Below are positions 7,290 to 11,690 of a stretch of DNA of 64,000 bases, one piece after another. The notes beneath the pieces are model-generated. The model was not told where the DNA came from, searched no databases, and was given only the letters and a program-made list of their open reading frames with translations. Source of the stretch: a phage; sequence record PZ445443.1. One strand, given 5' to 3'. The position numbers and the translations under genes were made by a program. Position 1 is the stretch's first letter; each line of letters starts with the position of its first letter.

Positions 7290-7335
7290 TTATTTTTAGA
7301 TGGCCTTGACTCCAGGGCCATCAATAAAGTAAACT
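7290..7335 (+). promoter_or_regulatory. repeated intergenic hairpin-promoter cassette, copy 1
   Basis: GATGGCC-TTGACTCCAG-GGCCATC hairpin with TTGACT in loop followed by TAAACT; near-identical copies at 7921 and 11641. Confidence 0.45.
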
Positions 7336-7488
7336 AACCACAGTTAAGCGGAAAAGGGGGGCTTGAAGATGAGTACTACACGCCAACACACAAAGGTAAC
7401 TATTATCGTTTGCATCATTGGTTACATCCTGGCGCAAATGTTGATGGGTAGCGCCAATGATTTCGCAAAATTTTTCTTAAACTTTTAA

Positions 7489-7516
7489 TTGACAAGCTAA
7501 CTTAAATCAGTATAAT
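7489..7516 (+). promoter_or_regulatory. sigma70-like promoter (TTGACA-16-TATAAT)
   Basis: Consensus hexamers upstream of CDS 7570. Confidence 0.5.
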
Positions 7517-7569
7517 ACTAAGCACATAAACGGGAAAACTTCCCAGAACACACAAAAGGAGAAAACATT

Positions 7570-7920
7570 ATGAATACTTCCATCACTATGACCACCGAAG
7601 AAAAAGCCCTGCAGATCGCCGCTCTGAAAAAACAGATTGCAGAACTGGAAGACAAGATCGACAATTTTGAAATCGACGAAGACAAATACGATGATAAATA
7701 TGATGAATGGTTGGACGAGATCCACGGCGAAATTATGATCGGTTGTATCTCTTTCCTCCCTTCACGTATCCTTAGGGAGCTGGATCCTATCGCTTACCGT
7801 TGCGGCTTTAGCGATTATATTGATAGCCTAGATATTGAAGATGACGAAGAATACCAGGAATTGCAGACAGAGCTTGAAGAAGCAAAAGAAGAGCTTGCAG
7901 AACTGGAAGAAAACGAGTAA
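7570..7920 (+). CDS. highly acidic coiled-coil protein
   Basis: ATG with AAAGGAG RBS; D/E-rich 116 aa. Confidence 0.6.
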   Translation: MNTSITMTTEEKALQIAALKKQIAELEDKIDNFEIDEDKYDDKYDEWLDEIHGEIMIGCISFLPSRILRELDPIAYRCGFSDYIDSLDIEDDEEYQELQTELEEAKEELAELEENE

Positions 7921-7968
7921 ATTTATTTTTAGATGGCCTTGACTCCAGGGCCATCAATAAAGTAAACT
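7921..7968 (+). promoter_or_regulatory. repeated intergenic hairpin-promoter cassette, copy 2
   Basis: Same 46-48 bp element as 7290-7335. Confidence 0.45.
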
Positions 7969-8009
7969 TTACACTGTTAACACTGAACTAATACAGAGGA
8001 GTTAAAACC

Positions 8010-8255
8010 ATGGCAGCACTAATCACCAAATATTATGCCCCTACCAACACCAAAAGCGCCCGTATCATGGTAAAAGGCTTCGGACGTAAAAAGGTTTACA
8101 CCTGGGATTATTCCCTAGACATGGAAGACAACTACACCAACGCAATGACCGATTTTATTAATGAACTAAATAAGCAGATCTTGACAAGTTATAAAGTGAC
8201 AGATATTGCTTATATAGGTGAAGGCGGGATCTGTTTTGTGGGCATTGTGAAATAG
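8010..8255 (+). CDS. hypothetical protein
   Basis: ATG with GAGGAG RBS; 81 aa. Confidence 0.55.
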   Translation: MAALITKYYAPTNTKSARIMVKGFGRKKVYTWDYSLDMEDNYTNAMTDFINELNKQILTSYKVTDIAYIGEGGICFVGIVK

Positions 8256-8300
8256 TTATTTTTTCGGTGGTCCTGGCTGCAGGGCCATCTATAAAGATAA
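8254..8300 (+). promoter_or_regulatory. variant of the intergenic hairpin-promoter cassette
   Basis: T-run, GGTCCTGGCTGCAGGGCC hairpin, then TATAAAG; diverged relative of copies 1-3. Confidence 0.35.
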
Positions 8301-8329
8301 TTTATTAACACCATGAAAGGAGAAAGTAC

Positions 8330-8683
8330 ATGATCAGCGGGGCTAGTTTTATTATTGGCGCTATTGCTACGGCTTTAATTGTAAACAAGATCCAGGATAA
8401 AAAGGAAAGAGGAAGTACCGCCCTTGCAGAATATCCATTTTGGACATTTAACGATAACGAAGATTATATTATAAAGTATAAAAATAAAGAGGGTGACCAA
8501 GTAACACCGCGACCGATCCCAGCTTACAAGATGCAGGAAACACTATACCGCCTGGAGGCGGGGGGCGCAAAAATTGTAGACTTTTGGGGATACGACCACA
8601 CAGATCAGGAAGTTATAAAGCGCCGTATCCGGGCTATTCAGGCCAATATTGAAGTTAGCAAGGGGGGAATATATGAAAATTAA
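8330..8683 (+). CDS. membrane-anchored protein
   Basis: ATG with AAAGGAG RBS; N-terminal hydrophobic segment. Confidence 0.55.
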   Translation: MISGASFIIGAIATALIVNKIQDKKERGSTALAEYPFWTFNDNEDYIIKYKNKEGDQVTPRPIPAYKMQETLYRLEAGGAKIVDFWGYDHTDQEVIKRRIRAIQANIEVSKGGIYEN

Positions 8684-8870
8684 TTTCGAGAAAATTGTAA
8701 AGCGCCCTCATGATTCCGAAGAGCTGCCAGAACGCCGCCAGCGTAACAATAAACTGAATAAGCCAAAAAGGTTTGGGAAGATCTGGCGTAATCATTATGA
8801 TCGTAAATTGCCCGGCCTACTTTTGGAGCGTGAACGACAGGCAGAACGATACCGCCATAAAGACAAATAA
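8673..8870 (+). CDS. small basic protein
   Basis: Track ORF 8649 (TTG) trimmed to ATG 8673 with AAGGGGGG RBS; R/K-rich. Confidence 0.45.
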   Translation: MKINFEKIVKRPHDSEELPERRQRNNKLNKPKRFGKIWRNHYDRKLPGLLLERERQAERYRHKDK

Positions 8871-9028
8871 CAACCAACGCCCAGCCATTGTGCGGGGCTT
8901 TTTATTTCTATCCTACGAATAGCGCCCCTGGTTGGCCCTGTAAGCGCCAAAAAGGCCCCCACCTATGCAATCGCCCCCTTTAACCTGAAAACATCGCCCA
9001 GGGCCGTTTCATGGCGTTAAAAATATCA

Positions 9029-9056
9029 TTGACATCGTCAACAGGTTAGCTATACT
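9029..9056 (+). promoter_or_regulatory. sigma70-like promoter (TTGACA-16-TATACT)
   Basis: Consensus hexamers upstream of CDS 9089. Confidence 0.5.
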
Positions 9057-10049: not shown

Positions 10050-10138
10050 ATAAAGTGTTGCAATAATCTAAAAACCTGCTATATTAAAACTCAAGGGGCG
10101 AGATGACTTGCCCCACACAAAACAAAGAGGATAACATC

Positions 10139-10519
10139 ATGAAAAACACCACCAAGGCCATTGACACCGTTATGTTTAACCTGGTTACATTCCGTGAAGA
10201 TATGAAAGATCTTCCACGTGAAACAGTGTGCGACCATATCGAAAACTATCGCAAACTTATTAAAGAATTGCCATTGAAACGAGATCAGTACGCGGCTAAC
10301 GCCATGCTTAACGCCATGATCAAAAAGATGATTCAGTGTGATTTAACTCTGGCCTATGATTATGCAGGTGGTCGTTTTGCAGTATACAATCAGCCCGTGC
10401 CTGGTATGAGCACCACCGAAGAATTGCACGCGCTCAATCTAAAACAAGATGTGTGGGATAGTATGCCCCGCGTGGTGGTATGGGTAGAAAGCGGAAAGAT
10501 TTACGGCGATAATTTTTAA
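10139..10519 (+). CDS. hypothetical protein
   Basis: Track start 10103 trimmed to ATG 10139 with AGAGGA RBS. Confidence 0.55.
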   Translation: MKNTTKAIDTVMFNLVTFREDMKDLPRETVCDHIENYRKLIKELPLKRDQYAANAMLNAMIKKMIQCDLTLAYDYAGGRFAVYNQPVPGMSTTEELHALNLKQDVWDSMPRVVVWVESGKIYGDNF

Positions 10520-10528
10520 TCAGGTAAC

Positions 10529-10558
10529 AGGCGGCGGCATATTTGCCGCCTTATTGTT
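10529..10558 (+). terminator. intrinsic terminator
   Basis: GGCGGCGGC-atattt-GCCGCC hairpin followed by TTATTGTT. Confidence 0.55.
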
Positions 10559-10586
10559 AATCAGAACTGTAAAAGAGGTACATAGA

Positions 10587-10958
10587 ATGGAATTTATCAT
10601 TTTGGCTATATTAGTTGCCTTGTTTAACGCCTGGATCGCTGGCAAGATGGGTAGATCCGCCTTTTTATGGTTTATTATATCTATCTTCCTGGGAGTGGTT
10701 GCAACTATTGTATTGGTTATCCTTGCAATTGTTGACAAGGGGAATAATAGAAAGGGTAAAGTATTTTCAGACCTGTACGACGCTCAAACGTTTGTCAACG
10801 CCTATTATAGTGATCTTCCAGTCTCCCTACGTTGCAGCCTTGCACAACAGGTTTTCGATGAAGCTAAAACCAGAGATCACGCCCATGAGATTTGTTTAAC
10901 TGAGGCGGATCGCCTATTTGAGAGGAATAGAAAATATGTGGACCAGCCGTTTAAATAA
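10587..10958 (+). CDS. membrane protein (two predicted TM helices)
   Basis: ATG 10587 with AAGAGG RBS; hydrophobic N-terminal half. Confidence 0.55.
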   Translation: MEFIILAILVALFNAWIAGKMGRSAFLWFIISIFLGVVATIVLVILAIVDKGNNRKGKVFSDLYDAQTFVNAYYSDLPVSLRCSLAQQVFDEAKTRDHAHEICLTEADRLFERNRKYVDQPFK

Positions 10959-11177
10959 TGCCACGTTAATTAACCCCTTTAGTGAAGATTTGAAGCCAGC
11001 CGCCTGGCGTGATGGATTCAATAACGAAAGCTTTATTTTCAGGCCTGATCTTAAGGAATTTTATAACAATGGATCGAACAACGACAGAGATAATTTTTCT
11101 TGTAATGTGCGTGGTGATAATACTCCTGGGGGCCATTGCAAACCACGTCACTGCTAACAGGAGGGAAGGGGGAGACG

Positions 11178-11297
11178 ATGACACCCAAGGATAAGCCCCG
11201 CACCGATAAGGCGCGCCGTGTTATGGTATGGCTTGAGATCATCGCCCTTGAAATATTGTTAGGCGTAGGGATGTATTTTATCGCTGTAAGTAACTGA
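11178..11297 (+). CDS. small membrane peptide (39 aa)
   Basis: ATG with GAAGGGGGAG RBS; hydrophobic core; not in ORF track (<60 aa); followed by strong terminator. Confidence 0.3.
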   Translation: MTPKDKPRTDKARRVMVWLEIIALEILLGVGMYFIAVSN

Positions 11298-11301
11298 TAA
11301 C

Positions 11302-11340
11302 GGCCCCCGATCCCTGGGGGCCTAACTTTTTAATTTTTTT
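11302..11340 (+). terminator. intrinsic terminator
   Basis: GGCCCCC-gatccct-GGGGGCC hairpin followed by T-rich run. Confidence 0.65.
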
Positions 11341-11439
11341 TCTCCCTGGGTGTTGCAATCCGATCCAGAATATGGATAATAACAATCAACGGGGAGACAC
11401 TCCCCACCGCACAGACAAAGTTCCAAAAGGAGAAACAAA

Positions 11440-11640
11440 ATGAGCAATAATATCCGCGTTATTAACTTCAAAAAAGAAGAAAAAATTGCTGTACTGGTTG
11501 ATGGTCAAGAAATCTTCAAGGGCGATTATGAAGATCATCAAACGGCGATTAGTATCACTCGCGTGATTGGTTACCATAATTTCTACCCCCAAGGCGCTGA
11601 GGCAGCAGTTAAACGAATCAAAGAGATTGTAGGCCTGTAA
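11440..11640 (+). CDS. hypothetical protein
   Basis: ATG with AAAAGGAG RBS; 66 aa. Confidence 0.55.
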   Translation: MSNNIRVINFKKEEKIAVLVDGQEIFKGDYEDHQTAISITRVIGYHNFYPQGAEAAVKRIKEIVGL

Positions 11641-11690
11641 AATTTATTTTTAGATGGCCTTGACTCCAGGGCCATCAATAAAGTAAATTT
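11641..11690 (+). promoter_or_regulatory. repeated intergenic hairpin-promoter cassette, copy 3
   Basis: Same element as 7290 and 7921. Confidence 0.45.

Follow-up and report, generated by a model that had tools for sequence, protein, structure and literature searches.

What is the short sequence that recurs between the small early genes of rV5-like coliphages? The question is raised by a stretch of 64,000 nt from a Vequintavirus (rV5-like) coliphage genome (sequence record PZ445443.1; the whole stretch is called the window here), in which an intergenic element of about 55 bases, designated E, is found four times over 4.4 kb in the early region, each time on the plus strand. With moderate confidence, we regard E as a composite intergenic cassette of the type described in T4-like phages as promoter-early stem-loop (PeSL) cassettes, here found in rV5-like phages. 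Conservation of structure and compensatory substitutions among related genomes support a hairpin core in the plus-strand RNA, while a promoter that restarts transcription in the three main copies is, as we infer, moderately likely. Comparison of related genomes further shows E as an apparent site of recombination.

A 47-mer of the element matches the window at 7288-7334 (2 mismatches), 7921-7967 (none), and 11642-11688 (1 mismatch) with no match in 100 shuffles, and a diverged copy with 62% identity over 63 nt lies at 8252-8314. At full length, the copies are E1 (7285-7339), E2 (7918-7972), the diverged E3 (8252-8306), and E4 (11639-11693), scoring 76, 78.6, 68, and 81 bits, respectively, with a covariance model built from 28 distinct E copies. 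A previous sequence-only reading of this DNA had proposed a repeated cassette with three near-identical copies and one diverged copy at 7290, 7921, 11641, and 8254; both the repeat and its sites were recognized correctly, while the positions were off by 1 to 2 nt. The genome-wide search that it suggested as a check, carried out with the covariance model, picks out these four sites and no others in the 64 kb, all on the plus strand with 68 to 81 bits, and the next-best, unrelated match reaches 16 bits. Every copy begins right after the stop codon of an upstream open reading frame (ORF; 6892-7287, 7570-7920, 8010-8255, and 11440-11640, respectively) and ends 25 to 40 nt before the next ribosome-binding site, and the upstream genes are small early ORFans. 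E is therefore, like the PeSLs, a repeated and conserved intergenic motif in a variable ("hyperplastic") early region. BLAST searches find it in 120 phage records, typically at three sites each, with E3 present in 118 records. No occurrence was found in 5,426 complete E. coli genomes, so E is not derived from the host or from prophages. Covariance-model searches of the window and of phages KKE7M, Paula, isim, and rV5_ev146 gave no further diverged copies; a weak match at 16920 belongs to a different repeat, and the features annotated as "repeat_region" in the isim record are unrelated to E. Searching IMG/VR for the 3' half of E added only two Vequintavirus contigs among 15 loci, and a metagenome scan with an over-degenerate pattern returned chiefly chance matches, with only three relevant loci (L049, L058, and L093). 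We found no earlier description of E in the literature.

The four copies share a predicted fold of the plus-strand RNA, with energies of -20.6 to -23.6 kcal/mol and z-scores of -4.8 to -6.9. A GC-rich upper stem of 10 bp (GAUGGCCUUG/CAGGGCCAUC, including one U·G pair) is closed by the tetraloop ACUC and stands on a 2x3 internal loop, below which follows an AU-rich lower stem of 8 to 11 bp; the AA of the upstream stop codon and the larger part of the putative -10 hexamer discussed below belong to this lower stem. In E2, the lower stem pairs 7919-7929 with 7959-7969 and the upper stem 7932-7941 with 7946-7955, leaving 7942-7945 as the loop, and the hairpin of E3 has the same two stems (GGUGGUCCUG-GCUG-CAGGGCCAUC). 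The sequence-only reading had envisaged a 7-bp stem with TTGACT in its loop, but this picture does not hold: in the minimum-energy fold with its 10-bp upper stem, TTG is paired and the loop consists of ACT(C). As in PeSLs, this stable stem-loop overlaps the promoter-like sequence, spanning it from -35 to -10. The opposite strand folds far worse (-16.8 and -8.1 kcal/mol), and under DNA folding parameters the upper stem alone is stable and the lower stem is not predicted. Rfam 15 has no match at E up to an E-value of 1 (searched over positions 5000-14000 of the window).

How this structure has been maintained can be followed in copies gathered from 16 related loci, which yielded an alignment of 28 distinct sequences of 55 nt. 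The two-stem structure gives standard pairs in 96.9% of all cells, compared to 35% to 56% if the 3' partners are slid by 1 to 3 columns. The upper stem is paired in 100% of cases, with four pairs varying solely via G·U, and four pairs of the lower stem vary on both sides (A-U to and from U-A; U-A to A-U to G·U to G-C; U-A to C-G; G-C to and from A-U). At E3, the same two pairs read U-A/A-U in the window, C-G/G·U in Gotham and rV5, and C-G/G-C in phiWec189 and A12a, a series that shows what we read as stepwise compensation through a wobble intermediate. Substitutions in the main copies are limited to loop nucleotide 3, where all four bases occur, loop nucleotide 4, and a C-to-U change by which the closing pair becomes G·U. 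Insertions and deletions in E are located in loops and not in stems—E1 of a more divergent genome (L012) has one additional base each in the apical and the internal loop with both stems intact. This constraint fits plus-strand RNA because each wobble pair would become an A·C mismatch in the opposite strand, and the pattern of wobble and compensatory changes points to an RNA rather than to a DNA cruciform.

The second component of E is a promoter-like sequence. As the sequence-only reading had correctly noted, the main copies contain TTGACT and a TAAACT-like -10 at a spacing of 18 nt (TAAATT in E4), with putative -35 and -10 hexamers at 7306-7311 and 7330-7335 in E1, 7939-7944 and 7963-7968 in E2, and 11660-11665 and 11684-11689 in E4; taken together, fold and hexamers support its view of E as a repeated composite of hairpin and promoter-like sequence. 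TTGAC is invariant in the main copies, an AT-rich T-run lies upstream, AAGTAAACT followed by AACCACA resembles the rV5 promoters P194 and P186, and a PhagePromoter call in the Gotham record names the same hexamers. Among the intergenic regions of more than 50 nt in this area, almost every one carries either a canonical promoter or E. We regard positional homology with a promoter of the phi92-like phage Paula as the strongest argument for promoter function. In Paula, TTGCAA-16-TAAACT lies before Phi92_gp235, and 11 nt further comes a hairpin in the 5' untranslated region (5'UTR; GGCGGTGG...CCACCGCC). In its close relative KKE7M, E precedes the same hairpin and gene, again at a distance of 11 nt, and is the only candidate promoter of this gene. 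The crossover between the two arrangements lies inside the shared AATAAAGTAAA, so that the AATAAAGTAAA of E stands in for the canonical -10 region. Judging from these sequence features, the chances that E1, E2, and E4 are active as promoters seem roughly even or slightly better, and E3 has probably lost this activity.

Recombination at E is apparent from the loss, replacement, and transfer of the genes that it borders. The cassette between E1 and E2 (7340-7917) comprises a small ORF (7363/7369-7488), a canonical promoter at 7489-7516 that corresponds to P192 of rV5 (Kropinski et al. 2013, PMC3606486, Table S4), a 5'UTR hairpin (7531-7545), and the ORF 7570-7920. It is missing from phages magaca, ime, and phiWec189 and from one IMG/VR contig (L011). 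Both phiWec189 and L011 lack window positions 7336-7921 and contain a single element with the left flank of E1 and the right flank of E2, and magaca and ime show the same chimeric arrangement. The flanks of this element in magaca are 100% and 99.9% identical to EdH4, which retains the E1-E2 cassette, the upstream flank of phiWec189 is 99% identical to rV5, and L011 is closest to Gotham. By these relationships, exchange between E1 and E2 has deleted the cassette independently at least twice, and probably three times. Similarly, the cassette between E2 and E3 (7973-8251, with ORF 8010-8255) is deleted in 241Ecol014PP, where this ORF is gone and a chimera follows E2 up to CATCAATAAAG and E3 from ATAATTT onward, with two uncompensated mismatches in the lower stem.

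Besides deletions, the comparison of the window with EdH4 points to replacement: identity is 86.7% between E1 and E2 compared to 95% to 99.5% in the flanks, and the switch points of this foreign segment lie just past E1 and inside E2. By this measure, the E1-E2 cassette of the window is of an ancestry unlike that of its flanks. Loop variants are also shared between different sites of the same genome—EdH4 has ACAC at both E1 and E2, while isim and rV5 have ACTT at both E2 and E4—which we interpret as gene conversion. Finally, KKE7M is a Justusliebigvirus and thus belongs to another subfamily, yet it shares a module with the window at 7488-7966 that consists of promoter P192, the 5'UTR hairpin, the ORF, and E. 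Homology between the two phages is restricted to this module and ends at the 3' end of E, relatives of KKE7M do not have it, and its left junction is an ordinary promoter rather than E. Identity amounts to 85% in promoter and UTR and 82% in the coding sequence compared to 47 of 49 positions in E, which supports the view that E is more constrained than the adjacent coding sequence. The earlier suspicion of copying from site to site has thus been borne out by the chimeras at deletion junctions, the shared loop variants, the cassette of foreign ancestry, and the edge of the cross-subfamily module. With ORFans at its flanks and the junctions of insertions, deletions, and replacements inside the motif, E again resembles the PeSLs.

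We therefore favor a model in which the conserved core of E is a 21-bp two-part hairpin in plus-strand RNA, i.e., in read-through transcripts from the upstream gene. The RNA hairpin would mark or protect the 3' end of the message of the upstream cistron, which seems its most likely role. It could do so as an exonuclease barrier or attenuator, or else as a processing signal of the RNase III type, comparable to those of the T7 early genes. In E1, E2, and E4, a sigma-70-type promoter would be interleaved with this hairpin, with TTGAC-N at its top and, across an 18-nt spacer, TAAAYT within the lower stem on its 3' side, and would restart transcription for the next gene. The near-identical copies of about 50 bp around small genes without known function provide portable homology. 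As the comparison of genomes shows, exchange between them deletes, swaps, and homogenizes cassettes, and recombination in the promoter-like half of E has carried a gene module into an unrelated phage. In a bolder version of this model, which we consider improbable, the hairpin serves as a dedicated signal in the RNA, either a cleavage site for RNase III or a binding site for a phage protein, and is physically fused to the restart promoter so that each unit ends one message and starts the next. If true, each small early gene would be a self-contained and exchangeable expression module that is mobile between unrelated phage subfamilies, and in a yet more radical form the strand-specific fold would be an attC-like single-strand recombination site.

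Several observations weigh against this composite model. The sequences compared are related, so that shuffle controls overstate the significance of covariation, and independent compensatory events are few, about five. In Gotham, E1 (L003 884-930) has lost 6 nt (GGGCCA) and with them the upper stem's 3' arm, so that the hairpin is destroyed and the spacer is down to 12 nt while the flanking genes are intact; E1, at least, is therefore dispensable. The match to sigma-70 promoters is only 9/12 with an 18-nt spacer, of which 36 were found compared to 21.8 expected by chance, and E is not in the published list of rV5 promoters (PMC3606486). By comparison, the accepted promoters nearby score 10 to 12 in a sigma-70 scan and have spacers of 16 to 17 nt. 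The "-35" of E3 is a poor CTGGCT or CTGGTA, and its "-10" decays from GATAAT to GACAGT (CTGGTA-17-GACAGT) through the same changes that preserve pairing, while E1 of L012 has a spacer of 20 nt; both keep the hairpin but not the promoter geometry. Going by these sequences, promoter activity of E may be absent or secondary. The earlier claim of a promoter has therefore come out mixed, with a chance-level score, absence from the rV5 list, and degradation in E3 and L012 on one side and the replacement of a canonical -10 in KKE7M on the other. Our literature search found no transcriptome or transcription start site data for Vequintavirus, and the promoter, attenuator, and processing roles are for this reason all inferred. 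With regard to recombination, many mosaic breakpoints of the region lie away from E, such as the one at 8024-8112 in Gotham and the deletion of 6880-7381 in rV5_ev146. Recombination is frequent across the whole region, with E as a preferred but not the sole site.

The best-surviving alternative to the composite model, though in our view an unlikely one, is that E is purely an RNA element, i.e., an intercistronic processing or stability hairpin serving as RNase III signal or 3'-end protector without any promoter. The hexamers would then be a by-product of the stem and its AU-rich flanks, and the copies would recombine merely because they are identical. It would readily explain why the hairpin is the sole feature common to all four sites and is kept where the hexamers decay (E3, E1 of L012), as well as the chance-level promoter score and the gap in the rV5 list. 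RNase III substrates have about two helical turns (approximately 20 to 22 bp) of duplex, and an internal loop at the target leads to cleavage of a single strand (PMC3867540); E, with a predicted 10 plus 8 to 11 bp around a 2x3 internal loop, matches these dimensions. Its 21 bp in two stems resemble substrates that are cut once, leaving behind a stabilizing 3' hairpin (PMC3867540), and the early intercistronic hairpins of T7 fold with upper stems of 9 to 13 bp and loops of 3 to 5 nt beside annotated promoters. However, an RNA element without promoter function does not account for KKE7M, where E replaces the only promoter of the downstream gene with its -10 in register, or for the invariance of TTGAC in the main copies, which includes loop nucleotides 1 and 2 while nucleotide 3 of the same loop is free to be any base. 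It also leaves without explanation why nearly all larger intergenic regions of the area hold either a canonical promoter or E.

Conversely, E could be only an early promoter whose palindrome is either a DNA operator bound by a dimeric regulator of phage or host origin or a supercoiling-sensitive cruciform, with no function at the RNA level. The inverted repeat GATGGCC-N10-GGCCATC indeed overlaps the -35 and the spacer, nearly every position is conserved, which is more than pairing alone demands, and the positional homology to a promoter in Paula and KKE7M would be accounted for. We nevertheless consider this explanation quite unlikely, since G·U (G·T as DNA) pairs that are invariant or serve as intermediates would be mismatched on the minus strand, which also folds far worse, the compensatory changes of the lower stem lie outside the palindrome core, and E3 retains the fold without the promoter hexamers.

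That E is an intrinsic transcription terminator, as annotated for E4 and E3 in the record of phage Murica (KT001917/NC_041871), seems very unlikely despite the stable GC-rich hairpin right after stop codons and despite the finding that RB49 PeSL stem-loops lowered the expression of a downstream reporter (PMC2839356). No U-run follows the upper or the full hairpin on either strand; the T-run is on the 5' side, in the lower stem, the upper hairpin is followed by CAAUAAAGUAAAC, and the full hairpin by CUAACC, UUUACA, or AAACCC. Lacking a U-tract, E is not a canonical intrinsic terminator, and its sequence does not support the terminator half of the "dual terminator/promoter unit" that had been proposed earlier. 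A terminator scan of the window did not call E, and the published list of rV5 terminators (PMC3606486) does not contain it. Efficient termination at E3 would moreover silence the ORFs at 8330-8870, since another promoter is not found until position 9029. Based on these sequences, E may have a weaker role in attenuation or in protection of the 3' end. Public records thus annotate E as "promoter" for one phage and as "terminator" for another, in both cases purely computationally. Least probable is that E belongs to a dedicated cassette-mobility system, in which its folded single strand would be the recombination site, like integron attC: E does lie at the 3' end of gene cassettes with a strand-specific hairpin, gain and loss junctions inside it, and a cassette moved between subfamilies, but no recombinase was identified, the flanking ORFs are of unknown function, the junctions fit plain homologous exchange anywhere in shared sequence (with the left junction in KKE7M in an ordinary promoter), and the fold is weak as DNA.

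If the composite model is correct, the PeSL idea—regulatory cassettes that double as recombination handles for small accessory genes—would apply not only to T4-like phages but also to two further subfamilies of large coliphages, as a single 50-bp unit marks several deletions that arose independently, the foreign cassette of the window, and the cross-subfamily module. For phage engineering, copies of E would represent natural, tolerated junctions for adding or removing early genes. From the perspective of RNA biology, E offers a compact and strongly constrained hairpin whose possible role in early mRNA processing is directly testable.

Region 6000-13000 of the window, which includes all four copies, is 93% to 94% identical to approximately 107 complete Vequintavirus (rV5-like) coliphage genomes. 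Its plus strand corresponds to the minus strand of rV5, and the early region is made up of small genes without known function; none of the ORFs flanking E has a Pfam domain, and the PHROGs to which they all belong are of unknown function. The top match to the window (94.4%) is MG065635, one of 17 UNVERIFIED records titled "Campylobacter phage" (MG0656xx) that are rV5-like or phi92-like coliphage genomes, and the host label "Campylobacter" of these records is probably wrong. With regard to E itself, the E2/E3 chimera of 241Ecol014PP (L145 3990-4070) reads TTGACA-17-GATAAT, an 11/12 match that is better than that of either parent element.

The window also contains several other repeats and hairpins. 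At 6857-6874, 7531-7545, 9380-9397, and 13483-13500, near-identical GC hairpins (GGCGGGAAAACTTCCCGCC and variants) lie in the 5'UTR about 10 nt after a canonical early promoter and are followed by a ribosome-binding site. These units are a second class of repeated cassette composed of promoter and stem-loop, and their hairpins resemble terminators on the minus strand. KKE7M (L021) has 5 to 6 copies of its own promoter-hairpin cassette of 60 to 70 nt. A stretch without obvious gene at 5220-5405 is composed of three imperfect tandem copies of a 65- to 74-nt unit (AGTACTCGATCTGTTTTTCGTTT...GGATTTTCTG) and could be an origin or another protein-binding array; comparable repeats of 67 to 75 nt are found in KKE7M (L021 1042-1396), followed there by GAGAATCATT inverted repeats. 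Four head-to-tail repeats of 21 to 22 nt (TAACTGTCCGTGATACGGACAC) at 58276-58361 each contain the palindrome GTCCGT-N3/4-ACGGAC. At 16923-16995, three copies of the 12-mer ATAGTTGCCYTG are packed into 75 nt, with two of them forming a 12-bp inverted repeat around a 26-nt spacer, and this cluster looks like an operator or another cluster of binding sites. The sequence at 12891-12945, which is 76% similar to 8937-8970, has the hairpin GGGGCC-GAAAA-GGCCCC right after a stop codon with neither a U-run behind it nor an intergenic promoter, and may be another intercistronic hairpin that is not a terminator.

Among known systems, the T7 early-gene RNase III signals R0.3, R0.5, R1, R1.1, and R1.3, whose positions were reportedly given by Dunn and Studier in 1983, also resemble the hairpin of E. 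They, too, are paralogous hairpins repeated between the cistrons of an early operon, with a GC-rich upper stem of about 10 bp, wobble pairs, a small loop, AU-rich flanks, an internal loop that splits about two helical turns, and promoters in the same intergenic regions. E differs in that it has no sequence homology to these signals and is only a candidate for cleavage, and the T7 signals are not known as recombination junctions; we therefore treat this resemblance as an analogy only. A 7-mer (UGGCCUU) common to E and T7 RNase III hairpins lies in opposite arms and was taken as coincidence.

The canonical early cassettes of rV5 and phi92, consisting of promoter, 5'UTR GC hairpin, and ribosome-binding site (rV5 P185, P192, and P194; Kropinski et al. 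2013, PMC3606486), share with E the genomic region, the AAGTAAACT flavor of the -10, a downstream CACA motif, their repetition within the genome, and the use as a crossover site, as seen at the left junction of the KKE7M module. Their hairpin lies in the 5'UTR, 3' of the start site, and their near-consensus promoter has a 16- to 17-nt spacer, whereas E has its hairpin 5' of the presumed start site, with the promoter enclosed in it.

The closest described counterparts of E as a whole are the PeSL cassettes of the T4-like phages RB49/phi1, T4/PST, and KVP40/nt-1 (Arbiol et al. 2010, PMC2839356; Comeau et al. 2014, PMC4122927), for which promoter and attenuator activity and the formation of mini-circles were demonstrated by reporter fusions and inverse PCR (PMC2839356). 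PeSLs are described as identical to the sigma-70 consensus, a further point against equating the two, as the promoter match of E is weak, with 9/12 positions and an 18-nt spacer. E also differs in its lineage, Vequintavirinae plus one copy in Stephanstirmvirinae, in its number of only four copies per genome, and in its 21-bp two-part hairpin, which covers both hexamers and shows RNA-type covariation. Yet both are repeated and highly conserved intergenic motifs among small early ORFans that combine a sigma-70-like promoter (in E a putative one) with an AT-rich upstream part and a stable stem-loop between or over -35 and -10. Like E, PeSLs are associated with insertions, deletions, and replacements among close relatives that have their junctions in the motif, including one RB49 crossover in the loop, and both are proposed to bring along their own regulatory signals when cassettes move.

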